Sequence record: MK295205 | Reading direction: 5' to 3' (one strand) | From: Shigella phage vB_SflM_004 | Length of the DNA stretch: 64,000 nucleotides | Part shown: one piece after another, positions 624-60,481 of the stretch | Layout of the letters: the number at the start of each line of letters is the position of its first letter | Position numbering within the stretch: position 1 is the first letter of the stretch | The notes under the pieces: model-generated | Seen by the model: the letters and a program-made list of their open reading frames with translations, nothing else | Databases searched by the model: none | What the model was told of the DNA's origin: nothing | Position numbers and translations under genes: made by a program

Positions 624-1007
624 CTGTATGTGTTCGTTTTGCAATCGCTGAAATGATTAACAAGGCAATCTTAAAAGATGCCTATGGAGAGACTAAGTAA
701 TGATTAAGACACCTGTACCAATTTTTGGATTCCCTTCTATAGAAGAGTTCAAAGTTTATCTTGACAAAAACTTCTACAACGAGCAGCCTGTTACTTTGCT
801 GAAACCACTCACTTCTGTGAAGGTTTTTATCGGAGAGTGACTTATCAGAGCTTCTTGATATGGTTATTAAGGCAACTTCTGAGAAGGAGCCTGAACAGAA
901 AGCTGAGAAGAAGACTAGTAAGAAATCTGATAAGAAGACTGAAAAGTCTGAGTAATAACTTAGGGGTTACTTGATAGCCCCTTTGTAGAAACTTAGAAGG
1001 TAGCGAA

Positions 1008-1430
1008 ATGAAAGAGCTTATTGGTAAAAGATTGACAGTTTACTGCTCTAAAACAAAGAAACCACTCACTTCTGTGAAGGTTTTTGATGTTGACACCACT
1101 GGTGTAGAGTACCCAATCCAATGCACAATAATTACTCCATTCAATGCAGATGATATGGATTTTAAAGAGTGTGAAGTGATATCTTTTAATGCTGATGGGT
1201 ATTGGAGAGGTAAGTTAAACAAGCAATCAAAAGATTTTGATATGCAAATCCTTATCAATGAAGGCTATATCTGTGTAAAAGATATCCTCGTAGAAGCCTA
1301 TGAAGAGGGTATAATAGATGTTGTGCATGATGTTGAAAAAGCTTTAAAGCTTGTTATGCCACATTTAGAATCTGGAAAGCTGACTTTAGAGATGCTTAAT
1401 AGGGTTATTCGGAGAGCTTATGAAAATTAA
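1008..1430 (+). CDS. hypothetical protein, present only in copy 1 of the duplication
   Basis: 140-aa ORF using the duplicated leader/RBS (gaaggtagcgaaATG); shares a 28-nt stretch encoding KPLTSVKVF with an upstream mini-ORF at ~808-835. Confidence 0.45.
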   Translation: MKELIGKRLTVYCSKTKKPLTSVKVFDVDTTGVEYPIQCTIITPFNADDMDFKECEVISFNADGYWRGKLNKQSKDFDMQILINEGYICVKDILVEAYEEGIIDVVHDVEKALKLVMPHLESGKLTLEMLNRVIRRAYEN

Positions 1431-1884
1431 AGAAACAGTTCGAAAAGCAATGCTTGATAACTCAACTAAAGATGAAATGTACAAAGAAATTTGTGATAAG
1501 TTGAATTGCTCAAGACATGCTGCTAAGGTTCTTGTACATTGTTTTATCTGGGAATGCTCAGAAGCTTATATGCAGTACGTAGCGTTTGAGAGTTCTCACT
1601 TACTAGGTGATGTAGAAACTGGTGAGAAGCTAAAAGAACCTGAGATGAAAACAGTCCCTAAAGTTGGTAATGTATACCCTCTTAAAGATTTCAAGACTGG
1701 AAAGATTGTTGCAAAAGGTGTAGTAGAATCTGTTTATCACGATGGTAAATACTTACTTAAAATATTTGAGTATGATAGCCACTACACACACTTGTGTGGG
1801 ATTACATTCTTAGTAACAGAAGAAGACCTCATTAAGAACAACGGCAACAAGTTTGCGGTTCCAGCTTACCAAGTTTTACGATAA
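1420..1884 (+). CDS. hypothetical protein, paralog A copy 1
   Basis: 154-aa ORF, about 90% identical to ORF 2846-3310; Cys-rich HCFIWECSEAYMQ motif. Confidence 0.55.
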   Translation: MKIKETVRKAMLDNSTKDEMYKEICDKLNCSRHAAKVLVHCFIWECSEAYMQYVAFESSHLLGDVETGEKLKEPEMKTVPKVGNVYPLKDFKTGKIVAKGVVESVYHDGKYLLKIFEYDSHYTHLCGITFLVTEEDLIKNNGNKFAVPAYQVLR

Positions 1885-1897
1885 TGGTGTGATAGCT

Positions 1898-2446
1898 ATG
1901 GAAAAAGATAACTTAAAAGAAGTTGAAGGTAACTATCTAGTCCTTGATTGGAGTGATGCTCAAGAAGCACTCTCTGAAGAAAGTCTTGACAGATTAAAAC
2001 AGATTGTTTTTGCAGTACGGGGTTACAGAGAAGTTAAAAATGGTAAAGACCCACTTGAAGGAGTCTTTGTAGAGAAATCTTATCCGTTCTATGAAGACAC
2101 TTTGCAGAAAGTTAAGATGTACTTTAGACAGAAGAACCGTAAAGTGGTCACTATGGTCTCTCTTGGTGGACAGAGTATGTCTGTGATGGAAGATATCAAC
2201 CCTAAGAGACCGAGTAAAGGTGTTTGTATAAAAATCACAGGTCATGAAGAGTATATCTCAGTGGATGACTTTAGAGCATTCTGTAGTGGTTCTTGTGTCT
2301 TTAATGGTTTTCACTATGATATCCGAGTGTACCCAATCAAGGGAGATGATATCATGATGCAGGTATTTGATAACAACAATGGATTTACTCATTTTTATCA
2401 GACAACCAAGTCATCACTGAAGACAGTTCTGGAAACACTGATTTAA
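1898..2446 (+). CDS. hypothetical protein, paralog B copy 1
   Basis: ORF 1853-2446 begins on a TTG; first ATG at 1898 (MEKDNLKEV); paralog of 3324-3872. Confidence 0.5.
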   Translation: MEKDNLKEVEGNYLVLDWSDAQEALSEESLDRLKQIVFAVRGYREVKNGKDPLEGVFVEKSYPFYEDTLQKVKMYFRQKNRKVVTMVSLGGQSMSVMEDINPKRPSKGVCIKITGHEEYISVDDFRAFCSGSCVFNGFHYDIRVYPIKGDDIMMQVFDNNNGFTHFYQTTKSSLKTVLETLI

Positions 2447-2466
2447 AATATCTCAAGAGCCTCCTT

Positions 2467-2498
2467 AATTGGGGGCTTTTTAATTTTTATAAAATTTA
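2467..2498 (+). terminator. rho-independent terminator
   Basis: GC stem GAGCCTCC/GGGGGCTT followed by a T-run directly after the stop of ORF 1898-2446. Confidence 0.5.
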
Positions 2499-2845
2499 TC
2501 GGTTGTCCCAACCTCTGGGTCACCACCATATGTGAATAAAATATCTATCCTTCTTAACAACCTTCTTAATCTTACTCTCTATATAGTTATATAGTACTAT
2601 ATAGTATCTTAGTAACTATCTAGTGGTCTTAATAGCGACTCTGTATAGTCCTTCTAAACACTCTTCTAACTGAGTGACTTATCAGAGCTTCTTGATATGG
2701 TTATTAAGGCAACTTCTGAGAAGGAGCCTGAACAGAAAGCTGAGAAGAAGACTAGTAAGAAATCCGATAAGAAGACTGAAAAGTCTGAATAATAACTTGA
2801 GGGGTTACTTGATAGCCCCTTTGTAGAAACTTAGAAGGTAGCGAA

Positions 2846-3310
2846 ATGAAAATTAAAGAAGTCGTTCAAAAAGCCATGCTTAACAATTCAACTAAACATG
2901 AAATGTACATAGAGATTTGTGATAAGTTGAATTGTACAAGACATGCTGCTAAGGTTCTTGTACATTGTTTTATCTGGGAATGCTCAGAGGCTTATATGCA
3001 ACATGTAGCTTTTGAAAGTTCTAACTTACTAGGTGATGTAGAAGCTGGTGAGAAACTAAAAGAACCTGAGATGAAAACAGTTCCTAAAGTTGGTAATGTA
3101 TACCGCCTTAAAGACTTCAAGACTGGAAAGATTGTTGCAAAAGGTGTAGTAGAATCTGTTTACCATGATGGTAAATACTTACTTAAAATATTTGAGTATG
3201 ATAGCAGATATACACACTTGTGTGGTCTTACATTCTTAGTAACAGAAGAAGACCTCATTAAGAACAACAACAACAAGTTTGCAGTACCAGATTACCAAGT
3301 TTTACGATAA
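2846..3310 (+). CDS. hypothetical protein, paralog A copy 2
   Basis: 154-aa ORF; paralog of 1420-1884; preceded by the duplicated leader and RBS. Confidence 0.55.
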   Translation: MKIKEVVQKAMLNNSTKHEMYIEICDKLNCTRHAAKVLVHCFIWECSEAYMQHVAFESSNLLGDVEAGEKLKEPEMKTVPKVGNVYRLKDFKTGKIVAKGVVESVYHDGKYLLKIFEYDSRYTHLCGLTFLVTEEDLIKNNNNKFAVPDYQVLR

Positions 3311-3323
3311 TGGTGTGATAGAT

Positions 3324-3872
3324 ATGGAAAAAGATAACTTAAAAGAAGTTGAAGGTAACTATCTAGTACTTGATTGGAATGATATTCGGGAAGCACTCTC
3401 CGAAGAAAATCTTGACTGGTTCGAACAAATTATCTTTGCAGTACGGCATAACAGAGAAGTTGAAAATGGTAAAGAGCCACTTGAAGGAATCTTTGTAGAA
3501 AGGTCTTATCCGTTCTATGAAGACACTTTACAGAAAGTTAAGATGTACTTTAGACAGAAGAACCGTAAAGTGGTCACTATGGTATCTCTTGGTGGACAGA
3601 GCATGTCTGTGATGGAAGATATCAACCCTAAGAGACCAAGTAAAGGTATCTGTATAAAAATCACAGGGCATGAAGAGTATATCTCAGTGGATGACTTTAG
3701 TGCATTCTGTAATGGTTCTGCTGTATTTAATGGGTTTCACTATGATATCCGAGTGTATCCAATCAAGGGAGATGATATCATGATGCAGGTATTCGATAAC
3801 AACAATGGGTTTACTCATTTTTATCAGACAACCAAGTCATCACTGAAGACAGTTCTGGAAACACTGATTTAA
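3324..3872 (+). CDS. hypothetical protein, paralog B copy 2
   Basis: ORF 3279-3872 begins on a TTG; first ATG at 3324; paralog of 1898-2446. Confidence 0.5.
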   Translation: MEKDNLKEVEGNYLVLDWNDIREALSEENLDWFEQIIFAVRHNREVENGKEPLEGIFVERSYPFYEDTLQKVKMYFRQKNRKVVTMVSLGGQSMSVMEDINPKRPSKGICIKITGHEEYISVDDFSAFCNGSAVFNGFHYDIRVYPIKGDDIMMQVFDNNNGFTHFYQTTKSSLKTVLETLI

Positions 3873-3882
3873 AATATCTTAA

Positions 3883-3914
3883 GAGCCTCCTTAATTGGGG
3901 GCTTTTTAATTTTT
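3883..3914 (+). terminator. rho-independent terminator, duplicate of the one at 2467
   Basis: Same GC hairpin plus T-run after the stop of ORF 3324-3872. Confidence 0.5.
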
Positions 3915-3929
3915 ATAAAATTTTATCGG

Positions 3930-5990
3930 TTGTCCCAACCTCTGGGTCACCATCATATGTGAATAAAATATCTATCCTTCTTAACAACCTTCTTAAGCTT
4001 ACTCTCTATATATAGTTATATAGTACTATATAGTATCTTAGTATCTATCTAGTGGTCTTAATAGCCCCTCTGTATAGTCCTTCTAAATATCTTAATAGCG
4101 TGGGCCCTCTAAATAGCCCTCTAAATAGCCCTCTAACAAGCCTTCTTAACAACCTATACAATCACCTTAACCATCTCTCTATAGCCTCTTAGAAGCCCCT
4201 ATACACCTCTTAATCTCTAGAAAGCCTTCTTAACAACCTATACAATCACCTTAACCATACCTCTACACCCTCTTAGAAGCTCCTATACACCTCTTAATCT
4301 CTATGTTACCTATGTTACCCTCTATAGGTGTTCACTAGGTATTACTAAGCCTCTATATAGAATATACACACTTGTGTGGTCTTACATTCATTGTTTTATC
4401 TGGGAATCTGTTTTAACAAACTTAACAGGAATATCTTTACAGACCTTATCTCACAAGGTCTAACACGGTACTAACAAGGTATCTTATAAGCCTGTTTATG
4501 CCTGTATTTTTAGAAGACTGTCTAGGTAATTATTCAGAATTTTAAAATTTTTATAAAATAGGACTATCAAGTCATTTTTTAGGGTCTTTGAAGGAACTCA
4601 AAAATATCTGTAGAAGATGTATATCTGCTTGGTAGCCCTTAACATCCCTGTAACATCTCCTTTGCAGAATTTTAAAAACCTAGAGGGAAAGTCCTGCAAA
4701 GACTTGTTGACCTTGAGTGGAATAAACATGCCTGTATATCCTTAACAATCTCTTAACAGTTACTACATCCTCTTAACATCTCTTCAGAGGTCTTAACAGA
4801 TTCTTAACAGAACTAACAAGGGCTTAACAATTTCTTAACAGTTGATACATGGTCTTTATAGTTCCCTATGTCAAATCTATCCTTAACAATCTCTTAACAG
4901 TTACTACATCCTCTTAACATCTCTTCAGAGGTCTTAACAGATTCTTAACAGAACTAACAAGGGCTTAACAGTTTCTTAACAGTTGCTACATGGTCTTTAC
5001 AGAGTTTTTATAAAATTTTATCGGGGTCTTAACAGATGACTAACAAGAGCTAACAAGTTAATTTTTAAGAGTTATTTTGTTAAGATAATTAACAAGTTCC
5101 TAACAAGTGTCTAATCTTTTTAACAAGCTATTAACACGGTCACTATCTCTTTTCTTATCGTTCCCTCTCTTTCTTAGTGATTCTCTAAATAGCCCTCTTA
5201 AAAGCTCTCTATAGCTCTTTGTAAGCTCTTTTAAGTCTCTTCCTAGTAATTACACCCCAACTGTACAGATACCTCTTTATAAGGCTTTACGGCTGTGTGG
5301 CAATATTCCTTGAACCATAGTCAAAAGGTCACAGAAGCTTTAAAGGCTATGTCAAAGACTCTTACAAGGCTTTTACGTGGTCTTAACAGAGATTTAACAA
5401 GGGGCTAACAAGTTGCTAACAAGTGCCTTATTCTTCTTATGCTGAAACTGCACATAAGATGGTTATAAGAAATTGTTAAGAAAATGTTAAGGGGGCTAGC
5501 ATTTACGTAACTTTATAGCCTCTTTTACGTAACTTTATAGCCTCTTTCACGTAACTTTGAAGCCCCTATAACATACTTTTAAGGCACTAACAAGCCCTTT
5601 TCAGATATTCACAAGATAACTAACGAGATGATAAAGCTTATACCCTTATAAGATTCTTTTAAGGCTATAGGAAGCTCTATAAAGGGCTTTTAAGGGTGAG
5701 TTAATGCAATCCCTTAAGTTAGGTTGATAAGGCTGTTATAGAGCTTTATAGAGCGTTTAAACGGTTGCCCTTCCCTTTCGGGTTATGGGCTTTTATTTAA
5801 GTTGATTTGATAAGAGGTTATAGAGTAGACTATAGAGTTATTGTTTTTAAGGTATGAGATAGATTCTATTGAATCAGGAGGATAGATTCTGGAAAGGAAA
5901 GGGAAAGGGTTGTATAGAGGCTATTACATAGACGTAAAAAAGCCCCATTTAAGGGGCTGTAAAGGTATCTGGGGCTATTTAGCCCCGTTG
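3930..5990. repeat. gene-free repeat-dense region (iteron-like direct repeats)
   Basis: About 2 kb with no ORF of 60 aa or more on either strand; dense cttaacag/ctaacaag motifs; ~80-bp unit repeated at ~4141 and ~4221; tacgtaactttatagcctctt x3 at ~5500-5570; copy of window nt 24-72 at ~4681-4729. Confidence 0.7.
4740..5000. repeat. near-perfect tandem direct repeat, ~117 bp x2 with a 141-bp period
   Basis: ccttaacaatctcttaacagttactacatcctcttaacatctcttcagaggtcttaacagattcttaacagaactaacaagggcttaaca... occurs twice in tandem. Confidence 0.8.
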
Positions 5991-5996
5991 CGTCGA

Positions 5997-6245
5997 TTAG
6001 TTGTAACCTTGTTTATTGTAGTACAGTGAGATAATCAAGTCACCCCAGTAATGATAGTGATGCTCGTCGTTTAATGCCTCTTTTACAGCGTCTTTCCAGA
6101 AGTCATCAGTAGGGTTATAATCTGGGATAACTTGCTTGATAACTGTCTTCACTAATGAAAAGCATTCATCAGTTCCACCAATATCAAATTTAACGTCCAG
6201 AGTATAACAGCCATAAGCATTGATAGTTGCGCGGATAGTTGCCAT
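5997..6245 (-). CDS. hypothetical early protein
   Basis: 82-aa ORF; ATG preceded by ggagattcgaaa RBS inside a family-1 intergenic element. Confidence 0.5.
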   Translation of the reverse strand: MATIRATINAYGCYTLDVKFDIGGTDECFSLVKTVIKQVIPDYNPTDDFWKDAVKEALNDEHHYHYWGDLIISLYYNKQGYN

Positions 6246-6313
6246 TTTCGAATCTCCTAGTTTAAGGACTTTATTTAGTGGGGAAGGTCATTCCCTCCCC
6301 GTTGATTAGTAAT
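6246..6313 (-). promoter_or_regulatory. intergenic hairpin+RBS element, family 1
   Basis: GGGGAAGGtcattCCCTCCCC hairpin followed on the minus strand by ctaaactggagattc and the next ATG. Confidence 0.5.
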
Positions 6314-6577
6314 TTACTGCATGTTGGCGTATGTTGCAAGCCTTTTTTCGTTGTATTTTGTCAGAATCTCACAAGATAAAACATCATATTTTGTAACCGC
6401 TTTGCCTTTGTCGAGGTCAAAGAATCCAAATGATTTACCATCTTTGAATCCGACAACTTCGTAAGATTCTTTAATGATTTCACCATTGAACAAATCACTT
6501 TCGATACGGTGGAATAGTGCTACATCCTCTTTGTCGGTTGCAATTTGTAAAAGTGTGTTCAGTTCGACGTGTTCCAT
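6314..6577 (-). CDS. hypothetical early protein
   Basis: 87-aa ORF; ATG with GGAG RBS from a family-1 element. Confidence 0.5.
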   Translation of the reverse strand: MEHVELNTLLQIATDKEDVALFHRIESDLFNGEIIKESYEVVGFKDGKSFGFFDLDKGKAVTKYDVLSCEILTKYNEKRLATYANMQ

Positions 6578-6638
6578 TTTGAATCTCCAGTTTAGGATTT
6601 TATTTAGTGGGGGAGGTCATCCCCCGTTGATTGACAAT
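6578..6638 (-). promoter_or_regulatory. intergenic hairpin+RBS element, family 1
   Basis: GGGGGAGGtcatCCCCC hairpin variant. Confidence 0.5.
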
Positions 6639-6959
6639 TTACAGACTTTTGATTGTCTCGTCAATATCTTTTTCAATTTCTCTTAAAGTTTTTTCTAAGT
6701 TCTTGATATTCAGCATTAACCCCTCTCCCAGTGTCTTAGCGTAACCATTTGGGCGATGGTCATAAAGCTCGATTTCTTCCACTTCGTAAAGGCTGACATT
6801 GAAGCCCCCTACCCCGTAGGCTGTGGATGAAGTGCCTTCCGGTGCTTTGTAGTACTTATTGAGATTCTTTAAAGAGCGCTCGTAAGCCATACGATAACCG
6901 TTTAACACTGTTTTAGTTGCCTTAATAGCAATCTCGTACACCTTCACACTGTACCGCAT
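6639..6959 (-). CDS. hypothetical early protein
   Basis: 106-aa ORF; weak RBS; alternative ATG at 6890; overlaps the upstream gene end. Confidence 0.4.
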   Translation of the reverse strand: MRYSVKVYEIAIKATKTVLNGYRMAYERSLKNLNKYYKAPEGTSSTAYGVGGFNVSLYEVEEIELYDHRPNGYAKTLGEGLMLNIKNLEKTLREIEKDIDETIKSL

Positions 6960-7179
6960 ACTTTTCTAAGAACAGCGGGAGGAGTTCCGCTACCGCTTGC
7001 ATGAAGTTCGATACTACAACGGTAGAAACATTACGACGATGAACGTAATAAGCCCCGTTTTCTGATTTAGTGATAGTTGCGAAATGTTCACCATTGCAAC
7101 GGAATTCATAGGTATCTTTTACAGGCTTGGACATTACATGATTTGAACGAATGTAGTTGATAGCTTGAAACTTGTTCAT
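6922..7179 (-). CDS. hypothetical early protein
   Basis: 85-aa ORF; ggagattctaaaATG start. Confidence 0.5.
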   Translation of the reverse strand: MNKFQAINYIRSNHVMSKPVKDTYEFRCNGEHFATITKSENGAYYVHRRNVSTVVVSNFMQAVAELLPLFLEKYAVQCEGVRDCY

Positions 7180-7256
7180 TTTAGAATCTCCAGTTTAGGA
7201 TTTTATTTAGTGGGGGAGGTCATCCCCCGTTGATTAGTAATTTACTTGTTTTAATT
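7180..7256 (-). promoter_or_regulatory. intergenic hairpin+RBS element, family 1
   Basis: Same consensus as 6246-6313. Confidence 0.5.
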
Positions 7257-7529
7257 TTCACCAATGATGAGCATTGCTAATGGCAACACAACAGAAACAA
7301 TCATACCGCAAAGGATAGGGTTTTTAATGATATCTAACATTTAGTGATTCTCCAGTTTAGGAAGTTGCCTTTTGAAGATACTATATAGATGTCTTTGCAA
7401 GCAATTTTTTAAGTTTATCTATAAAGAATCTTTTAAGTTAATCCCTTTTAGATAAACCCCCTCGAACAAAGTTACCAATGTCAAGGGGAGTTGTCAATAC
7501 TTTTTTAAAAGTTTTTTGTAAGTTCTTGA

Positions 7530-7871
7530 TTAACTGATGAATATTTTTTCAGGTTTTACATAGCTGATACGCTGGCTTTTTAGCAGGTCATCCCAGATTA
7601 ACGCGGCAATATGAGAATAGCCGGATTCACGTAAAAGCTTCATTGTTTTACTTCTCGTTTCAAAACGGCTTGCATAGTACTCACTATTCAGTGTCGTTTT
7701 ATTCCCTTCGTTATCTGTATGGATGATTTGCATCACTTGAAAGGGGCTTACATCCTCGCCTTTGTTCCACTGCTCAAAGTATTTTAGGCACTGCATAGGT
7801 GACATCTTATCACTGACTTGAGTTGACCAAGATGAATCTTCTTTATTGGTAATTACAGTTACATAAGCCAT
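7530..7871 (-). CDS. hypothetical early protein
   Basis: ORF 7530-7955 trimmed to the ATG at 7871 (MAYVTVITNK), which follows the element-type RBS cctaaacttgagaatctgaaa. Confidence 0.5.
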   Translation of the reverse strand: MAYVTVITNKEDSSWSTQVSDKMSPMQCLKYFEQWNKGEDVSPFQVMQIIHTDNEGNKTTLNSEYYASRFETRSKTMKLLRESGYSHIAALIWDDLLKSQRISYVKPEKIFIS

Positions 7872-8381
7872 TTTCAGATTCTCAAGTTTAGGATTATTGG
7901 TAAAGCTCTTTGTTAGGGTCTCAGAATAATAGCACCCGGGCCACATGTAGAGCACTTTAATAAACTCTAGCCATCAGTTTATTTACTGCCATAAATGTAT
8001 TATCTTTGCAGTGTAGACGACAGCTCTTCTATAAGAAAAGAAATTCTCCGTTGGATGCTATTTCTAGGCCTATCCTTGAGGCTTCCATGTTAAGGTTACA
8101 CTCTACACCTTTTAAACACCACAAGGTAGAAAGTTTTTGCATCAGTGATAACATTTTAGATTCTCCAGTTTACCCCATGTAAAGCACTTTATTAGTTATT
8201 TGTAGTAATAATATGTAAACTCATTTATCAGGAGCTAGAATTTCATCAATCAACTTTTTAGCGTCATCATTGGGAATTCTAACTTCCAGCCTCATCATTA
8301 TACTGCTTATGACTAGCCAGATAACCGCCATTCTGTGACATTAGGAGGTTGTAGATGCGTACAACTAACACCTGAGTATTT

Positions 8382-8460
8382 ATTAATCTCCAGTTTAGGA
8401 TTTTATTTAGTGGGGAGGCTATCCCTCCCCGTTGATTAGTAATTTACAGACTTTTATCAG
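8382..8460 (-). promoter_or_regulatory. intergenic hairpin+RBS element, family 1
   Basis: GGGGAGGctatCCCTCCCC hairpin copy. Confidence 0.5.
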
Positions 8461-8466
8461 GCTTGT

Positions 8467-8700
8467 CTAGTCTTTTTCAATGATAATTTCATACTGACCA
8501 TCAACACTATCAAAATAGACGCCGTCTTCATCTTCTGTCTTAAAGTAGCATTGTATGTCATCACTGGCGGGGTAGTCTTGTCTTGCTATCTGGCAAACTT
8601 GAATAGCATTTTCTTTACTTCCTGTGAACTCTTCAAGCCCTTTAAAATCGCATGAATGGCCGTTACAAATGGAAAGGATGAGATAAATGGTTGTAAGCAT
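8467..8700 (-). CDS. hypothetical small protein with hydrophobic N-terminus
   Basis: 77 aa; MLTTIYLILSICNGHSC looks like a signal peptide or TM segment. Confidence 0.45.
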   Translation of the reverse strand: MLTTIYLILSICNGHSCDFKGLEEFTGSKENAIQVCQIARQDYPASDDIQCYFKTEDEDGVYFDSVDGQYEIIIEKD

Positions 8701-8763
8701 GGTTTAAGCCCTCTAAATGGCCCTGTATGGGCCTTAAGTTGGAAGTTGGTGTCTTTGTATTGA

Positions 8764-9327
8764 TTAACCTAAAAAGTCGCTTAGATTGCGTTCTGTGATG
8801 TTTGCCGTGATTTTATCCAGCAAGTCACAAAACACGGAACTATCACCGCTATTCTGTACAATTTTCGCCATACTTAACAAATCATCGTCAACATAGCCTA
8901 AATTGCGGTTAGTTGCATCTGGTACAAAGAAAGGTGCATACATCGCACTAAATTTCGTTGAGTGTATGCTAACAATCCAATTTTTATCAAAGTATCCGGT
9001 AAAGCTGGCAATTTCGCTCATGTTGTCACAAGAATAATCATCCTCTAGCTCTTCCTCTGGGATATCCATTTCAATAACAATCACTTCCTGCGTCTCCATT
9101 TGGAAAGCTGCCGTGATAAGCCCAGACTCTAAAGCGCTTTGAATGCAGCGTTCACGGATGTAAGAATCTTCCTCATCTTCCAGACATTCCGTTTTGATAA
9201 CCTTGTTCATTGGGTAAACGTAGAAACAATCGTCCATGTAGGAGCAGTTCCAGATTCCTTCCGGCTTGTCGCCACCATTCAGCAGGTTTACAAAGTTTTT
9301 GAGGGTAGTTCCGTGATAGCATTTCAT
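8764..9327 (-). CDS. hypothetical early protein
   Basis: 187-aa ORF; canonical ggagattcaaaaATG start. Confidence 0.5.
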   Translation of the reverse strand: MKCYHGTTLKNFVNLLNGGDKPEGIWNCSYMDDCFYVYPMNKVIKTECLEDEEDSYIRERCIQSALESGLITAAFQMETQEVIVIEMDIPEEELEDDYSCDNMSEIASFTGYFDKNWIVSIHSTKFSAMYAPFFVPDATNRNLGYVDDDLLSMAKIVQNSGDSSVFCDLLDKITANITERNLSDFLG

Positions 9328-9412
9328 TTTTGAATCTCCAGTTTAGGATTTAGTGGTAAAGCTCTTTATCTGGGGCTTACTTTATCGAACTATAAGCCCC
9401 TTGTAAAGTACT
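9328..9412 (-). promoter_or_regulatory. intergenic hairpin+RBS element, family 2
   Basis: GGGGCTTActttatcgaactaTAAGCCCC hairpin plus taaactggagattc RBS. Confidence 0.5.
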
Positions 9413-9661
9413 TTATTTAACTTTTTTTGAGAAAATTAGTTTAACTGCAACCGTAGGAATCTCGTCAGCGGTTGTAACCCGCATTACTTTTTGAGTGACC
9501 AACTTATAGCCGTTCTTTGCAGCGTATGCGGTAAAACGGTTAACGTTGTAACTATAAGTTTTTGGTGTGTTATCTGGCATGTGGTAAAGAAAAGGTTTAC
9601 CCAAATTTTCTTCTTGTGTCAACAGTCGGCAGGTATCAGGGATATTGAAATAGTTCATCAT
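9413..9661 (-). CDS. hypothetical early protein
   Basis: 82-aa ORF with ATGATG start after a family-2 element. Confidence 0.5.
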   Translation of the reverse strand: MMNYFNIPDTCRLLTQEENLGKPFLYHMPDNTPKTYSYNVNRFTAYAAKNGYKLVTQKVMRVTTADEIPTVAVKLIFSKKVK

Positions 9662-9751
9662 TTTTGAATCTCCTAGTTTAAGGATTATGTAAAGCTCTTT
9701 ATCTGGGGCTTACTGTACAGACTTATAAGCCCCTTGTAAAGTACTTTTTAT
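9662..9751 (-). promoter_or_regulatory. intergenic hairpin+RBS element, family 2
   Basis: GGGGCTTA...TAAGCCCC hairpin copy. Confidence 0.5.
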
Positions 9752-9949
9752 TTAATTTTTGACAACTTTTAAAACTGCAAGATAACCTAAGCAATAAGAG
9801 TCACCGAAGAGAGTCCTACCCATGAAAGAATCCTCTTTGATATCCTTTGCAGTGACAGTTTTTTCTACGCCGTGGGAAAGGACTACATCACCAACTTTGA
9901 TATCTTTGATGTGTGTTGTTTCAATGGTTAAGCCGTTAATAATAGCCAT
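9752..9949 (-). CDS. hypothetical early protein
   Basis: 65-aa ORF; element RBS. Confidence 0.45.
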   Translation of the reverse strand: MAIINGLTIETTHIKDIKVGDVVLSHGVEKTVTAKDIKEDSFMGRTLFGDSYCLGYLAVLKVVKN

Positions 9950-10030
9950 TTTAGAATCTCCTAATTTAAGGACTTTATTTAGTAGGGAGGTTATTGCCTC
10001 CCCGTTGATGAGTAATTTAATCTATCTAAA
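9950..10030 (-). promoter_or_regulatory. intergenic hairpin+RBS element, family 1
   Basis: GGGAGGttattgCCTCCCC hairpin variant. Confidence 0.5.
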
Positions 10031-10049
10031 AATCAGTGTCAACATCTTT

Positions 10050-10457
10050 TTAAAGTTCTGCGTAGATTGCATCACAGACATCACGGAAATCATGATTTGT
10101 TAAGTTACGTTGTAACCAAGTGGCAAAGAAATCAGCGATTGCAAAATTAGCGTCATACTCGACGGATAGCCACACTTTAACAGCAAATCGGAACATCTTT
10201 AAATCAAGCTCTTTATTCATTACCTTTGATTTGCCTAACATGTCGGCCATCTCATGTTGTGCACCGTCTAGCGTGATACCGGCTGCAACGTCAGCCAATG
10301 AGTTTTTTACGCTTTCAACGTCTAAGATAATACTTTGAATCTTCCCAATAATGTTTTGCAGTGTTTCATCTGGTGCTGATGATGTGATAACATTAATCCG
10401 GTTGACGGTCAAACGTGCTTTTAAGATAGATAACTCTTTACGATTATTAATAGCCAT
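10050..10457 (-). CDS. hypothetical early protein
   Basis: 135-aa ORF; element RBS. Confidence 0.5.
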   Translation of the reverse strand: MAINNRKELSILKARLTVNRINVITSSAPDETLQNIIGKIQSIILDVESVKNSLADVAAGITLDGAQHEMADMLGKSKVMNKELDLKMFRFAVKVWLSVEYDANFAIADFFATWLQRNLTNHDFRDVCDAIYAEL

Positions 10458-10545
10458 TTTTGAATCTCCAATTTAGGATTTAGTGGTAAAGCTCTTTATC
10501 TGGGGCTTACTTTATCGAACTATAAGCCCCTTGTAAAGTACTTTA
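10458..10545 (-). promoter_or_regulatory. intergenic hairpin+RBS element, family 2
   Basis: Near-identical to 9328-9412. Confidence 0.5.
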
Positions 10546-10818
10546 TTAGGCTAAATGCAGCTTTTTGCCTTTTACTATGATGTAACTTGATGCGCTATTG
10601 CCGCATACATCTTGATAAATTCTACGCAAACGGCCTTCGTAGTATACTTTCCAGCTAGTTGGAATCTTTTTCCCGTATCCGGTAGCAGTTTTTTGGAATC
10701 CTGCAAGTTGCCAATCCAAAATGTGCTGTTCAGCTTGTAAATCCTCGAAGTGCATTACACCGTTTACATAGTGGCGTAGGGTTACGTTTAAGGTGCGACC
10801 GTTGTTAGTAGTGTACAT
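10546..10818 (-). CDS. hypothetical early protein
   Basis: 90-aa ORF; element RBS. Confidence 0.5.
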   Translation of the reverse strand: MYTTNNGRTLNVTLRHYVNGVMHFEDLQAEQHILDWQLAGFQKTATGYGKKIPTSWKVYYEGRLRRIYQDVCGNSASSYIIVKGKKLHLA

Positions 10819-10895
10819 TTTTAGAATCTCCTAGTTTAAGGATTTTATTTAGTGGGGAAGGTCATTCCCTCCCCGTTGATGTGTAATTTAACCTA
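10819..10895 (-). promoter_or_regulatory. intergenic hairpin+RBS element, family 1
   Basis: GGGGAAGGtcattCCCTCCCC copy. Confidence 0.5.
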
Positions 10896-10909
10896 TCTAA
10901 AAATCAGTG

Positions 10910-11248
10910 TCAAACACTTTGTTTTCGTTTGCTCAATTGTATATCTTGAACAATTACAGCGTGATAGTCTTTCAAGTCACTGATGTTTAAAGCATTTATC
11001 AGAGAATTATAATCATCAACTAACTGGAAATCATCTTTGAAGATGTCACTTATCTGATAGGTTTTCGCTTTATATCTGAAGCTCATCTCTAGCCGCTTTA
11101 TTTGCTCATCACTTAAACGCCCTAGAAAGCTCTCTACAAGGTTATTGCTAACTTGCTGTGTGATTGCCTTATTTGCTAGATTATAGGCTTTATATGCCTT
11201 ATATAGCGCGAAAATGGCAATGATTGCAGTGATACCAGTCATTAACAT
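10910..11248 (-). CDS. hypothetical membrane protein
   Basis: 112 aa; N-terminal hydrophobic helix MLMTGITAIIAIFALY; GAGGA RBS. Confidence 0.5.
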   Translation of the reverse strand: MLMTGITAIIAIFALYKAYKAYNLANKAITQQVSNNLVESFLGRLSDEQIKRLEMSFRYKAKTYQISDIFKDDFQLVDDYNSLINALNISDLKDYHAVIVQDIQLSKRKQSV

Positions 11249-11538
11249 GGTGTTTCCTCTTTACGTGATACTTTGCCATTTACAGTTATCTCATAGGATT
11301 CTAATAAATCGCTTTTAGACTTTACAGGACTTTTAAAAGTATCATCATAAACATTAATTTGCAATACAGGCTTTTTATACTCCCTGCAACTATTCCATAA
11401 GCAAATCACTACACGACGGCCTTTTATTTTGCCGTGTAACCATTCCATAACATCATGACTATTCCTTGATGTCTCTATAAAATCAATTTTGTTGAGTAAT
11501 TTGCTAAGGTTTTCCCTAACTTTATTTGACAATTTCAT
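11242..11538 (-). CDS. hypothetical early protein
   Basis: 98-aa ORF; element RBS. Confidence 0.5.
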   Translation of the reverse strand: MKLSNKVRENLSKLLNKIDFIETSRNSHDVMEWLHGKIKGRRVVICLWNSCREYKKPVLQINVYDDTFKSPVKSKSDLLESYEITVNGKVSRKEETPC

Positions 11539-11626
11539 CTTTGAATCTCCTAGTTTAAGGGTTAATTTGATAAATCTCTTTATCTGGGGCTTAAGATATC
11601 AACTTTTAAGCCCCCTGTAAAGTACT
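11539..11626 (-). promoter_or_regulatory. intergenic hairpin+RBS element, family 2
   Basis: GGGGCTTAagatatcaacttttAAGCCCC variant. Confidence 0.45.
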
Positions 11627-11932
11627 TTAGATATTAAAGATATTCATAACAGAATCTTTCAAGGCTTCTAAACGTTCCATTACTTCAGATTCTCCATCGG
11701 AGTTCGACACTTCCTCTTCTAATCGTGAATCTAAATCTTCCCCGTCAAGATAGCACCAATCGAAGCCATAAGCAAGAGAAAAGCTATTTAATACTGTATT
11801 ACCTTCTTTATCTTCTACCTTTGCAAATAGCACGTAGCTGTTAGCCTCTAAATCTCTTTGTAATTCATCTTGTAAGCTCTTGTAAGCCTCTATAGATGGA
11901 TTTTCGCGGCCTTGTTTAGCATAATCACTCAT
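11627..11932 (-). CDS. hypothetical strongly acidic small protein
   Basis: ORF 11627-11935 starts on TTG; first ATG at 11932; very Asp/Glu-rich (EEEVSNSDGESEVMERLEALKD). Confidence 0.45.
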   Translation of the reverse strand: MSDYAKQGRENPSIEAYKSLQDELQRDLEANSYVLFAKVEDKEGNTVLNSFSLAYGFDWCYLDGEDLDSRLEEEVSNSDGESEVMERLEALKDSVMNIFNI

Positions 11933-12203
11933 CAATTGTGAAAGGCTGTAATGCTGTGGAATTGCATATTTGTACCCGTTACGCTCTGGATTTTTAAGTT
12001 TGATTGTAACCCCGCCTTTGTGCTCATCAGTTAATTTTCAGCTTTGCATACAATGGGATGCTTCACAAATATTGAATTTTTCTTTTTGAACTTCAAAGGT
12101 AGCTTCAACAAAATTCATTTTAACCTCTCATTGTACGAATGGGGGATGTTAAGGCTATGCGTCTAAATCTTATCTAACTATAAACCCCATGTAAAGCACT
12201 TTA

Positions 12204-12461
12204 TCAGATTAAATTGTCAGTTAATGATAAGTGCATTTTATATGCCTTTTTCGTGTATACATTTGTCTTCCCGATAGTGCTTACGCATGTAAAAAGGTTT
12301 ATCGGTGAATTTTTTAGCTTCAACTGTTTATCAACCTTTACGCCCCATCTTACAGCAGATTGTTTTCCGTTGTCAATCACTTTTCCGCATAACTTTTTAG
12401 CCATAACGCGAGCGTCATCACGAGTTTTTGCAGCAATTACAACGTTTTTGATAATAGCCAT
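12204..12461 (-). CDS. hypothetical early protein
   Basis: ORF 12204-12476 starts on TTG; ATG at 12461 (MAIIKNVV) with GGAG RBS. Confidence 0.5.
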   Translation of the reverse strand: MAIIKNVVIAAKTRDDARVMAKKLCGKVIDNGKQSAVRWGVKVDKQLKLKNSPINLFTCVSTIGKTNVYTKKAYKMHLSLTDNLI

Positions 12462-12476
12462 TTTTAAGTTCTCCAA

Positions 12477-12552
12477 TTTAGGTTATTTAGTGGTAAAGCT
12501 CTTTATCTGGGGCTTACTTTATCGAACTATAAGCCCCTTGTAAAGTACTTTA
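12477..12552 (-). promoter_or_regulatory. intergenic hairpin+RBS element, family 2
   Basis: Family-2 consensus copy. Confidence 0.5.
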
Positions 12553-12933
12553 TCAGTTAATTTTGAAAATTGTCACATAGCCGTCACTGCCGATTATTTG
12601 AGACACTCCAGCTTTTTCCACTGAATAGCCCATATTTTCAAGATGATAAGCAGCATCATCATAACCATATGCGCCACCCTGATAACGTCTCTTATCGCAT
12701 CTTATCAGGTTTTTACCACGTCCTGCAAGTGCATTCAGTACGGCTTTTTCACTTGATAGCGTACCATCTAACATGGTTGCCGTGTAATGGTTGATTTTAT
12801 TCCCGTTAATATCATACTTAAAATTGAATGCGTGAACAACAATCAATTTGCCGTTAAATTTTTCATCAAGTGACTTCTCCAGTACATTGCGAAAGTTGTC
12901 TTTATTGATAAATTTCGGTGCGCGATAAGCCAT
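12553..12933 (-). CDS. hypothetical early protein
   Basis: 126-aa ORF; element RBS. Confidence 0.5.
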   Translation of the reverse strand: MAYRAPKFINKDNFRNVLEKSLDEKFNGKLIVVHAFNFKYDINGNKINHYTATMLDGTLSSEKAVLNALAGRGKNLIRCDKRRYQGGAYGYDDAAYHLENMGYSVEKAGVSQIIGSDGYVTIFKIN

Positions 12934-13022
12934 TTTTGAATCTCCTAGTTTAAGGTTAGTTAGTAAAGCTCTTTATCTGGGGCTTACTTTATCGAACTAT
13001 AAGCCCCTTGTAAAGTACTTTT
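12934..13022 (-). promoter_or_regulatory. intergenic hairpin+RBS element, family 2, overlapping the 3-prime end of the upstream gene
   Basis: Family-2 consensus; the hairpin encodes the last codons of ORF 12984-13181. Confidence 0.45.
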
Positions 13023-13181
13023 TGCAATAATTTTTATAAAATCTTTCATGGTTATTTTGTCGCTATTTGTAAGGGCTATACAGTCATTACCCATAGCAGA
13101 CTTATAGAGATAGAAGACTTTACCAATTTTTGGGTATCCGTCTAAATCTTTGTATTGTATTAAATCGTTTTCTTTAATCAT
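12984..13181 (-). CDS. hypothetical early protein
   Basis: ORF 12984-13187 starts on TTG; ATG at 13181 (MIKENDL). Confidence 0.45.
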   Translation of the reverse strand: MIKENDLIQYKDLDGYPKIGKVFYLYKSAMGNDCIALTNSDKITMKDFIKIIAKSTLQGAYSSIK

Positions 13182-49379: not shown

Positions 49380-50001
49380 TGTTTCTGTTGAAAAATGATA
49401 AACACAGATGGTCACAAGTCTGTTCAGTTATTGCTTGATGGTAAAGGCTACCAAGCTAACCGTCTAGCAATACTATATGTGGATGGATACCTGCCTGATA
49501 AAACCTTAGAGCGTAATGCTGAACAGCAAGCTCCAGGTTGACCATAAGAATGGAGATGGTTGGGACAATAGGTCCAAGATAAGTCATAAGAAATATTTGA
49601 AGTTCCCTGCTGACGCTCAACTTAAATTTAAGGGTTTCGTTGCAGGATTTCAAGAGATGCTGACTCAGAAAGCTTTTACAGCATATTCTCGTGAGAACAC
49701 GGTATACAACATTCCTATAGAGTTGATTCCTGATGTTCTTCTTATGCTGAAACTGCACAAAGATGTTGAGGATTTCGATGGTGAGATTTATGCTCATGGT
49801 TGGGACTTAGAAGATATTGTTTCGATGATTAAGAATGCTGACAATCCAGACCGTCACCTTCTTAAATTCTACTGGTATGATATCTGTGACAAGACTAAAT
49901 CTTGGCCTGAGCGTCGTGAAGTTTCACCATTGTACAGCTTCACAAAACTCTTGCAATCGGTCAAGAAAGAAAACTCCTTCAACGAGTGTTGTCACCGTTA
50001 A
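49380..50001 (+). pseudogene. HNH endonuclease remnant (frame-disrupted)
   Basis: Frame a reads ...GKGYQANRLAILYVDGYLPDK...APG then stop; frame b continues VDHKNGDGWDNR (HNH core); a matching N-terminal fragment LLDYDPETGV lies ~1.1 kb upstream at ~48270. Confidence 0.5.
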
Positions 50002-59485: not shown

Positions 59486-60481
59486 TTAAGCAACTCTCTT
59501 CCACACATAAACAACATAAGATGGTTGTTCAACACTGAAAGCTTGTCCACCACCAGATGCACCAGTTGTACCTGAGTGAGTGTGCTCAGAAGATTGAACT
59601 GTCACAGTACCACTGTGTGTATGTGAACCAATACCGACTGTGTGGCTGTGAGCACCAATACCGACTGTGTGGCTGTGGTCACCGGATGCACCAGATGTAA
59701 CATCTCCAATCGTCACAACGTGAGAGTGGTCACCTGCCCCATAAGTTGGTTGTGACGCATTACCAACACCTGCATCAGCCGTTGCCGTAATAGCATTCAC
59801 ACCACGTCCACCAACGTTCTGTACAAGAGCTTGGTGAGTGTGATTGCCAGAGTTGTTTGTATTCCTTGAACCATAGTCAAAAGTACTGGTATACTTAGTT
59901 CCATAGTCAAAGTCACTTGTAGATTTTGTACCATAATCAAACACACTCGTTGTCTTATTTCCGTGGTCGAAACTTGAAGCTGACGCACTATTACCATGCG
60001 TGTGTCCACCACCAGTTAACAATACAGAGTGTGTGTGACTTGGAATGTTATTTTGAGAAAGTGCTACAGATGCACTACCAAAATTAGTTTCAACTGGTCT
60101 TGTGTCAGAATCATAACCAACTAATGCTCTACCTTTAGAGACAAGTTCCCAAGTACCACCACAAAGTAAATATGTAGATGGGTTTGCAGGGTTAACTGAC
60201 AAATGGATAGTACCAATTGGGTAACTATTCTGGATAGCTCTATAAAGAGCATTCACAGCTTTTGCAGTAGCATACTTATCAGCATCTTCAGAGTAAGAGT
60301 TTGAATAAGTCCAGTATTGAATATTGGAGACATCTACCTGAATCTTGTTAGTATTGTGAGGGTTGTTCTTATCATTGATGTGGTTCTGAATAAGAGTATT
60401 AACTTCATCACTTGATAGAATATTAAGGTTCTGCCTAGCCTCTTCAACACTAACCACGTCTGACAAGTTATTAGCAGCCAT
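59486..60481 (-). CDS. tail fibre protein (His-rich)
   Basis: 331 aa; repeated HTH/HSH motifs (GDHSHVVTIG, GDHSHTVGIGAHSHTVGIGSHTHSG); conserved C-terminus ...YVVYVWKRVA. Confidence 0.6.
   Translation of the reverse strand: MAANNLSDVVSVEEARQNLNILSSDEVNTLIQNHINDKNNPHNTNKIQVDVSNIQYWTYSNSYSEDADKYATAKAVNALYRAIQNSYPIGTIHLSVNPANPSTYLLCGGTWELVSKGRALVGYDSDTRPVETNFGSASVALSQNNIPSHTHSVLLTGGGHTHGNSASASSFDHGNKTTSVFDYGTKSTSDFDYGTKYTSTFDYGSRNTNNSGNHTHQALVQNVGGRGVNAITATADAGVGNASQPTYGAGDHSHVVTIGDVTSGASGDHSHTVGIGAHSHTVGIGSHTHSGTVTVQSSEHTHSGTTGASGGGQAFSVEQPSYVVYVWKRVA

Follow-up and report, generated by a model that had tools for sequence, protein, structure and literature searches.

In Felix O1, the leftward-numbered 40-24 transcription unit closes with the coding block ORF26-ORF25-ORF24, and ORFs 24-26 reach their peak expression at 25 min, in mid-infection (Whichard et al. 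2010, PMC3185647). They are the final genes ahead of a non-coding region of about 2 kb that houses the terminal repeat. The corresponding genes of phage Bas63 are gp112-gp113-gp114(-gp116), and in knock-outs the loss of gp113 was tolerated and that of gp112 was mildly negative, with gp114 and gp116 mattering more in host S17-1.

The window, by which we mean the whole 64,000-nt stretch of DNA that was analysed, belongs to a Felixounavirus (Felix O1-like phage), and the locus under study is its version of this block. Orthologues of Felix O1 ORF24-ORF25-ORF26(-ORF27) and of their Bas63 counterparts are found here with order and orientation kept, and the genes are followed by the terminator, the 16-bp palindrome and the ORF-free repeat region common to both phages; the coding block ends about 0.75 kb short of the terminal-repeat region. 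Unlike the Felix O1 and Bas63 blocks, the locus has the ORF25-ORF24 pair twice, a split ORF26 and a further truncated ORF26 fragment, as well as one ORF140, which both of those phages lack. Judged by sequence comparison, the two copies look like alleles of two phage lineages that were illegitimately recombined near the genome end. The arrangement is best seen as an oddity of how phage genomes evolve, and it does not amount to a new system.

The tandem repeat and its contents

The first-pass annotation had described the tandem duplication of a segment with a gene pair. The repeat is real, both copies are intact, and the parts listed for the units were found. The two units form a direct repeat, arranged head to tail with one novel junction. 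A repeat is indeed present in the interval of 800-3930 given for it earlier, but unit 2 continues to 4137. The features are as follows.

835-2671, plus strand: duplication unit 1 (haplotype with ORF140); colinear with the relatives' single copy
2672-4137, plus strand: duplication unit 2, the ORF140-less haplotype
2665-2678: novel junction J1, non-coding TCTAAC, then T, then GAGTGAC (inside ORF74)
962-1010, plus strand: conserved hairpin (962-982) with spacer, RBS and ATG (996-1010), 100% identical between copies
1008-1430, plus strand: ORF140 (phrog_7193), in unit 1 only
1420-1884, plus strand: ORF154 copy a, orthologue of Felix O1 ORF25 and Bas63 gp113
1898-2446, plus strand: ORF182 copy a, orthologue of Felix O1 ORF24 and Bas63 gp112
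2455-2490, plus strand: intrinsic terminator a, strong (-15.3 kcal/mol, z = -3.0)
2588-2603: 16-bp perfect palindrome TATATAGTACTATATA, copy a
2846-3310, plus strand: ORF154 copy b, in unit 2
3324-3872, plus strand: ORF182 copy b, in unit 2
3881-3916, plus strand: intrinsic terminator b, strong
4017-4032: 16-bp palindrome TATATAGTACTATATA, copy b

Between the units, 1,329 of 1,425 aligned positions are identical (93.3%), with values of 98.8% in the 74C/hairpin/RBS part, 91.6% in ORF154, 92.7% in ORF182 and 93.8% in the post-gene DNA. The amino-acid divergence of about 10% noted earlier was reproduced, as the proteins differ at 14 of 154 (ORF154) and 18 of 182 (ORF182) residues, or 9-10%. The length of ORF182 is 182 aa counted from the ATG and 197 aa with an upstream TTG start. 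Each unit has the 8-bp hairpin AGGGGTTA/TAGCCCCT (-14.8 kcal/mol), and the RBS GAAGGTAGCGAAATG lies at 996-1010 and 2834-2848, with no further exact copies in 64 kb. A narrower placing of the two terminators is 2455-2480 and 3881-3906. For the palindrome, no third match was found in the window with up to 2 mismatches allowed, and exactly one perfect copy exists in every relative locus covering the site (32/32). The extra ORF140 of the first copy was also confirmed as present there and not in unit 2; among relatives its slot is variable, being occupied, swapped for a 56-59% allele, or empty.

The 74-aa gene ORF74, orthologous to Felix O1 ORF26 and Bas63 gp114, remains only in parts.

700-840, plus strand: 5' part of the gene, a 46-aa ORF with a premature TGA
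804-834: private templated 31-nt insertion splitting ORF74
860-955, plus strand: mini-ORF copy 1, the final 31 codons of ORF74 by comparison with relatives
2697-2792, plus strand: mini-ORF copy 2, an ORF74 3' fragment with an in-frame TAA (2667-2669) just upstream

Residues 1-35 of the 5' part are 100% identical to the ORF74 of relatives, after which the frame is shifted. The 31-aa mini-ORF, identical in both units, had been taken for a leader, but it corresponds to the C-terminal 31 codons of a 74-aa gene conserved in all relatives. A leader peptide or attenuator was rejected on the grounds that the ORF is the ORF74 3' end, that no SD precedes its ATG and that there is one hairpin only. Rfam gave no family above threshold.

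The donors of the 31-nt insertion were located within the locus, where 801-828 equals ORF140 1058-1085 and 825-833 (TTTTATCGG) equals a post-terminator motif at 3921-3929. The 28 nt reported to be common to ORF140 and another mini-ORF just upstream exist, but at 801-828 and not at 808-835. The insertion was found in no phage record, nor in IMG/VR. Its right edge and the start of unit 2 are the identical nucleotide, in both cases immediately before GAGTGACTTATC. A physical genome end at this ORF74 breakpoint was considered and ruled out, as the DTR of phage D4 corresponds to 4631-5496, some 3.8 kb beyond it.

Relationship of the two copies and their origin

There are 242 matching phage records, and both query copies fall on one stretch of about 2.2 kb, i.e. 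a single copy in about 240 relatives. Each of 27 relative loci has one ORF154 and one ORF182, and the duplication occurs in no other genome. A second place for the gene pair exists in 2 of 211 records, one of which is an over-long record of 109 kb. Junction J1 was found in no phage record, IMG/VR sequence, metagenome contig or genome contig (GTDB).

In the gene trees of both ORF154 and ORF182, copy a and copy b were sisters in 0 of 200 bootstraps, and the partner copy ranks only 12th-18th among 26-27 relatives. Copy b has an outside match of up to 97.0% and copy a one of up to 94.8%, compared with 92% between the copies. Between the paralogs dN/dS is 0.18 and 0.25 (orthologue pairs: median 0.20), and the dS of 0.20-0.28 matches the depth of the genus. 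Of the marks of a duplication in situ, adjacent head-to-tail copies with one novel junction are present, but the copies are neither mutual closest relatives nor common to descendants. That the duplication is not recent, as had been concluded from the divergence, does not follow, because the copies are never sisters, each is nearer to the genes of other phages and their dN/dS is orthologue-like.

We account for these observations, with a probability of roughly 0.6, by two allelic versions of the block (units 1 and 2) joined through illegitimate template switching or recombination between two co-infecting genomes near the terminus. Two Felixounavirus genomes diverged by about 8% would have co-infected, and a non-allelic switch would have joined the ORF140-bearing version to the ORF140-less one. 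Natural ORF140-less phages are colinear with unit 2 across its RBS-ATGAAA-ORF154 junction, e.g. pEP20, with 98.3% identity in one piece. The genus is so mosaic, the nearest relative switching every few hundred bases, that the parental pair cannot be named.

A different history, which we consider unlikely, is a recent in-situ tandem duplication followed by the overwriting of one copy, or part of it, through homologous recombination with a co-infecting relative. Short segments are constantly exchanged across the genus, and the 74C/hairpin/RBS part is nearly the same in both units, which speaks for this history, but that segment is 95-99% conserved across all relatives regardless. Moreover, at least two events are needed, which must recreate the natural ORF140-less junction of unit 2 exactly, and the 84-nt repeat described below also consists of two natural alleles, for which a single inter-genome event is simpler.

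An assembly or library artefact, whether a chimeric join between two Felixounaviruses in one mixed lysate or a set of amplification chimeras, also appears improbable. It is favoured by the fact that the tandem arrangement and all patches are known from one assembly; an exact look-up of the ORF154 proteins (copies a and b) in the assembly collection gave no independent contig of the phage, and two alleles within one contig could come from a mixed sample. On the other hand, the patches differ from collapse or expansion errors in being clean, on the same strand as their donors, built of several pieces and 100% identical to those donors. The two sides of J1 are non-homologous and share no k-mer, which means that an assembly graph could produce the join only from reads that contain it. 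A further point against an artefact is that most chimeras made by amplification are inverted and would not make it into the consensus.

An old in-situ duplication, diverged by about 10% within the lineage and kept for dosage or diversification, would agree with two intact copies under purifying selection, but we give it very little credence, since the trees contradict it, many closer orthologues exist elsewhere for each copy and no other member is duplicated despite the genus-deep dS.

Private patches beside the terminal repeat

About nine private rearrangements lie within 4.7 kb, the duplication among them. Phage Shy, 97.7% identical across the aligned non-coding DNA, was used as the reference for the patches, and the private insertions relative to it are clean and 100% identical to donors in the window's own genome. 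The position of the terminal repeat, for which a PhageTerm statement is available (PMC11737134), was transferred from phage D4.

4091-4128: private 38-nt insertion or 12-mer repeat expansion
4131-4298: private 84-nt tandem duplication, 92% identical, its units resembling Shy-like and nataliec-like natural alleles
4362-4407: private two-piece patch from ORF154 (4362-4389 = 3208-3235, copy-b specific; 4389-4407 = 2963-2981)
4631-5496: equivalent of the direct terminal repeat (581 bp) found at each end of the D4 record
4678-4877: private 200-nt insertion with a 50-nt copy of 51-100, 9 nt and an extra 141-nt tandem unit (98%)
5004-5025: private 22-nt patch (5005-5024 = 3910-3929)
5289-5330: private patch (5304-5327 = 59860-59883)
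5431-5464: private patch (5431-5454 = 49736-49759)

All seven significant donors (7/7) are on the same strand as their patches, and the patches were found in no phage record. Coding-to-non-coding patches of at least 18 nt number five in the window and none in 17 relatives. The templated insertions are donor-identical, clustered and multi-piece, as expected of a template-switching cluster. Junction microhomology, read by eye, is 0-3 nt, which is not above chance and fits template switching and end joining alike. The patches taken from copy b match their donor at 100%, which dates the rearrangement episode as recent and counts against an old duplication.

From these patterns we infer a replication-based mechanism and a link to the terminus; any functional consequence would be equally conjectural. 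Break-induced or recombination-dependent replication starting near the genome end would drive the join, and the same process or episode would leave the 31-nt templated insertion at the ORF74 nucleotide where unit 2 begins, the 84-nt two-allele and 141-nt tandem duplications, and at least six short patches that keep the strand of their donors elsewhere in the genome. Two of the duplications consist of alleles of two genomes, which implies that co-infecting genomes, rather than sister molecules, would have been the partners in the switching. It is a tentative suggestion that the duplication and the eight other same-strand templated changes represent one template-switching episode from a virion DNA end in a mixed infection. 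If so, Felix O1-like phages that carry a DTR would make errors in the first few kilobases of end-initiated recombination-dependent replication, and terminus-proximal DNA would generate new gene arrangements, including instant "heterozygous" tandem pairs. The terminus link may instead be positional, with insertions surviving only where the DNA is non-coding or the gene dispensable.

Gene products, expression and known systems

The locus proteins belong to PHROG families 4713, 4330, 7193 and 4457, all annotated as unknown function. Searches of Pfam, NCBI-style family names, PADLOC and PDB sequences gave nothing above threshold for them, and PADLOC matched no defence or anti-defence family. ORF154 had been called a Cys-motif protein, but its invariant cysteines are C30 and C46 only; C25 is almost so, and one whole subgroup has Ser in place of C41. 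A Cys4 zinc finger was rejected, as the four cysteines are not conserved and the region is predicted to fold as a three-helix HTH. In the predicted structure this N-terminal HTH, which superposes on LuxR/FixJ-type or sigma-70 region-4 members, is followed by a small beta-barrel of Tudor/SH3-like type. The Pfam search of ORF154 returned only HTH_23 (E = 0.19, 12 bits against a cut-off of 24.6), and the PDB profile search gave nothing relevant. For ORF182, which has no match at the sequence level in Pfam or PDB, a Whirly-type beta-sheet plus helix (Whirly / MRP / SsgA fold) is predicted at the C-terminus. Both are probably accessory nucleic-acid-binding proteins, the modelled fold of ORF182 being of an ssDNA/RNA-binding type. 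Nothing supports the earlier proposal of a host-interaction gene pair, and the predicted folds are nucleic-acid-binding. Together with the perfectly conserved and otherwise single-copy 16-bp palindrome downstream, these fold predictions provide leads on the gene pair.

No sigma-70 consensus site was found between terminator a and ORF154b, and promoter-like matches in the region are no commoner than in shuffled sequence. Copy b lies behind the strong terminator a, so it would be expressed only through read-through or from an unrecognised promoter.

If the arrangement is real, a virulent phage obtained a diverged paralogous pair in one step from alleles of co-infecting relatives, and paralogue divergence is uninformative on the age of a duplication. 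The patch cluster beside the terminal repeat provides a readable mutational signature for studying how Felix O1-like phages, much used in diagnostics, biocontrol and therapy, recombine illegitimately.

PeSL-type mobile regulatory cassettes reportedly mediate modular shuffling in T4-type phages (Arbiol et al. 2010). The locus resembles them in that a conserved hairpin-plus-RBS linker flanks the variable ORF140 slot, and the early region of this phage repeats 75-93-nt hairpin/RBS cassettes between small genes, the 57-bp repeats of Felix O1 being of the same kind. It differs in that the linker is restricted to the two duplicated positions in 64 kb and has no consensus promoter, and J1 falls outside it. 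A genome-wide mobile hairpin/RBS cassette was ruled out at this locus by the presence of two copies only.

The other comparison is with microhomology-mediated break-induced replication, or template switching during BIR (reviewed in PMC3678771), and with T4-type recombination-dependent replication. As in these pathways, duplications and short templated insertions cluster here, with donors both near and distant. The kept strand polarity, the little or no junction homology and the closeness to a DNA end are likewise shared, whereas the locus is distinguished by two duplications that combine alleles of two genomes; by analogy, such a pathway may apply to Felixounavirus.

Setting and composition of the duplication

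The two head-to-tail units are a private and probably recent tandem duplication of two alleles, placed in an accessory locus that is hypervariable and close to the terminus. The elements that the first-pass annotation had listed for them are all present in the sequence; the observation itself is confirmed, while its interpretation was partly wrong.

Main features of the locus
835-2671: unit 1, carrying the copy a genes
2672-4137: unit 2, carrying the copy b genes
2588-2603 and 4017-4032: 16-bp palindrome TATATAGTACTATATA, about 145 nt beyond the ORF182 stop
end at 3872, plus strand: plus-strand gene cluster
ends near 5997, minus strand: cluster of small genes with its own terminator

The units are 93.3% identical across 1,425 aligned bases, setting aside 412 ORF140 bases private to unit 1, and their gene products differ by 9-10%, close to the ~10% originally described. 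A 28-mer common to ORF140 and the upstream region had also been reported; it exists, but its true positions are 801-828 and 1058-1085, slightly different from those reported. From the alignment, positions 1-2669 are colinear with the single copy of relatives. In unit 2, RBS-ATGAAA leads straight into ORF154, without ORF140. A private deletion of ORF140 was rejected for this unit, since the same layout occurs as one colinear piece in many relatives (for example pEP20, REP7, heid, momo, NBEco005 and JH2, and also Bas63 and Felix O1). Among 27 relative loci, the ORF140 slot holds a 92-98% allele or a 56-59% allele, is empty, or has an extra upstream gene alongside; several allele classes exist for ORF154 and ORF182 too. 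ORF140 is flanked by short direct repeats (ATGAAA at 1008-1013 and 1420-1425; GAGCTTAT at 1014-1021 and 1412-1419), through which it could be recurrently gained and lost between haplotypes.

The region matched 242 phage records, almost all of them Felixounavirus, with top identities of 92-95%, and over 23 kb of backbone the identity to the closest relatives is about 92-93%. Therefore, the phage belongs to a distinct lineage, itself absent from the collections. An exact-protein look-up found no record for the ORF154 proteins of copies a and b. Felixounaviruses are Felix O1-like myoviruses of Escherichia, Salmonella and Shigella, and they carry 17-22 tRNA genes. No tRNA genes were found across the 64-kb window, and the tRNA cluster of this phage must lie beyond it, elsewhere in the genome.

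The two gene clusters point towards each other across about 2 kb of repeat-rich, ORF-free DNA (3.9-5.95 kb), which contains 11-nt-phased CTTAACAG/CTAACAAG motifs and tandem repeats of 12, 22, 84 and 141 nt; many GenBank Felixounavirus records were opened within its counterpart. The record of phage D4 has an identical 581-bp repeat at each end, mapping to ~4631-5496. Its authors reported direct terminal repeats called by PhageTerm (PMC11737134), and short terminal repeats were likewise inferred for Felix O1 by Whichard et al. (PMC3185647). Thus, the coding block that holds the duplication is the final one ahead of the terminal repeat.

Relatedness and age of the two copies

Each relative examined has one copy. 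Both query copies land on a single stretch of ~2.2 kb in 242 records, and 27 relative loci have one ORF154 and one ORF182 each. The gene pair was found at 213 places in 211 records, one of the two extras being an over-long 109-kb record. J1, the novel junction between the units (2671/2672), did not occur in phage records, IMG/VR, JGI metagenome contigs or GTDB genomes. That the arrangement is an artefact appears improbable to us; against a graph misassembly, J1 unites unrelated sequences without a common k-mer.

The nearest relative of ORF154a is ULIM9 (95.9%), and those of ORF154b are SP116-like and NBEco005-like phages (96-97%); when 26-27 relatives are ranked, the partner copy comes no higher than 12th to 18th. 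In the neighbour-joining tree of either gene, the copies were sisters in none of 200 bootstraps. The dN/dS values between the copies, 0.18 and 0.25, are the same as for orthologues from phages with an equal degree of divergence (median 0.20). From the non-sister placement and the orthologue-like dN/dS, we conclude that the 8% divergence built up in separate lineages, each of which carried one version as its only copy. A duplication followed by allele replacement is the other way to arrive at two such alleles, and we regard it as unlikely. The 8% gives no date for the duplication. The first-pass annotation had called it "not recent" on the basis of copy divergence, which does not date it; the duplication looks young.

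Gene content and conserved non-coding elements

In Felix O1 numbering, the locus comprises ORF27 (membrane protein), ORF26 (74 aa), ORF25 (154 aa) and ORF24 (182 aa), equivalent to gp116, gp114, gp113 and gp112 of Bas63. All locus genes fall in PHROG families of unknown function, with no Pfam or PADLOC matches, and their homologues are found only in Ounavirinae-type phages. The alignment-based structure models of ORF154 and ORF182 have mean pLDDT values of 81 and 83. According to published data, Felix O1 ORFs 24-26 peak 25 min after infection; in Bas63, gp113 knock-outs are tolerated, gp112 scores are noisy and mildly negative, and gp114 and gp116 are more important in host S17-1. The disruption of the 74-aa gene (ORF74) in this phage fits a conditionally dispensable gene. 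The strong terminator a, 3' of ORF182a, stands 5' of copy b, and no consensus promoter was found between them, so any dosage effect is putative.

Each of the 32 relative loci covering the site (L001-L027, L029 and L031-L034, with Felix O1 and the divergent L022 among them) holds exactly one perfect copy of the palindrome TATATAGTACTATATA, despite variation in the flanking DNA. It looks like a protein-binding site, for which the neighbouring predicted HTH protein ORF154 would be the obvious candidate binder. Cassettes of 72-93 nt, made of a hairpin plus an RBS, recur between small genes of the minus-strand cluster (6245-13024); one family numbers 7 copies and another 3, with identities of 94-99% among some of them. 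Their Felix O1 counterparts are the published 57-bp direct repeats. The cassettes have TTTACA-hairpin-TAAAGT on the coding strand, so they may combine a promoter and a stem-loop.

Private rearrangements and a possible mechanism

Beyond terminator b (3' of ORF182b), the aligned non-coding DNA of the window shares 97.7% identity with phage Shy. The identity is 97-100% in most 100-nt windows of 3846-5145, with clean insertions as the exceptions.

Private insertions
804-834: 31 nt, breaking ORF74; frameshift leading to a stop at 838-840
4091-4128: 38 nt, insertion or 12-mer repeat expansion
4185-4268: 84 nt, additional unit of the 84-nt repeat; the two units resemble Shy-type and nataliec-type alleles
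4362-4407: 46 nt, two ORF154 pieces (first piece copy-b-specific)
4678-4877: 200 nt, segment 51-100 copied (50 nt, 4678-4727), followed by 9 nt and an additional 141-nt unit
5004-5025: 22 nt, of which 20 nt are copied from 3910-3929
about 5289-5330: 42 nt, with a 24-mer (5304-5327) identical to 59860-59883
5431-5464: 34 nt, with a 24-mer (5431-5454) identical to 49736-49759

There are about nine private structural changes in 4.7 kb, the largest being the 1.47-kb duplication. The patches, 804-834 among them, measure 19-50 nt, with donors in ORF154, ORF140, 51-100, 3910-3929, 59860-59883 and 49736-49759. All seven donors of at least 19 nt are on the same strand as their patch and 100% identical to it; about 1e-4 chance exact matches of at least 18 nt are expected per patch. 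Exact coding-to-non-coding repeats of at least 18 nt number five in the window vs none in the 8-kb loci of 17 relatives. The three patches searched for in phage records (4362-4407, 5289-5330 and 5431-5464) were in none of them. Among 28 relative loci, the ORF154-derived patch is absent, one match per locus was seen for the 84-nt unit and for the 51-100 segment, and the 141-nt unit has two matches in a few. Shy has small local duplications of its own (L032 ~1790-1900 vs 5860-5950; TATGAGATAGATTCTAT.GAATCA), missing from the window, so the non-coding region gains tandem changes, not dispersed patches, in other lineages too.

The supposed 31-aa leader proved, on alignment with relatives, to be the C-terminal 31 codons of ORF74, a conserved 74-aa gene. 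The 31-nt insertion that breaks it was absent from every other phage searched (phage records, IMG/VR). The 28 nt identical to ORF140 span its left edge, and its final 9-10 nt match the TTTTATCGG motif found after the terminators. Unit 2 begins within ORF74, where non-coding ...TCTTCTAAC is followed by one T and then directly by GAGTGACTTATC...; the right-hand edge of the insertion is likewise ...|GAGTGACTTATC. Within alignment ambiguity, the insertion and the start of unit 2 thus have one breakpoint. We put the chance that independent breaks within a 1.8-kb unit would land so near each other at about two in a thousand, and, judging from these edges, we take the two scars to be mechanistically linked.

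Repeated template switches by a nascent strand from one co-infecting genome to another, of the type known from break-induced or recombination-dependent replication (reviewed with template switching in PMC3678771), would fit two duplications composed of different natural alleles, the re-use of a breakpoint, multi-piece patches with strand polarity kept, and an entire cluster near a DNA end. The junction homology of 0-3 nt is not above chance and is compatible with template switching and with end joining alike. For the clustering, the alternative is that non-coding DNA and a dispensable gene are simply the only places where insertions are tolerated. A two-allele tandem duplication, for which we favor template switching, is an already-known kind of event; here the accompanying scars are unusually legible.
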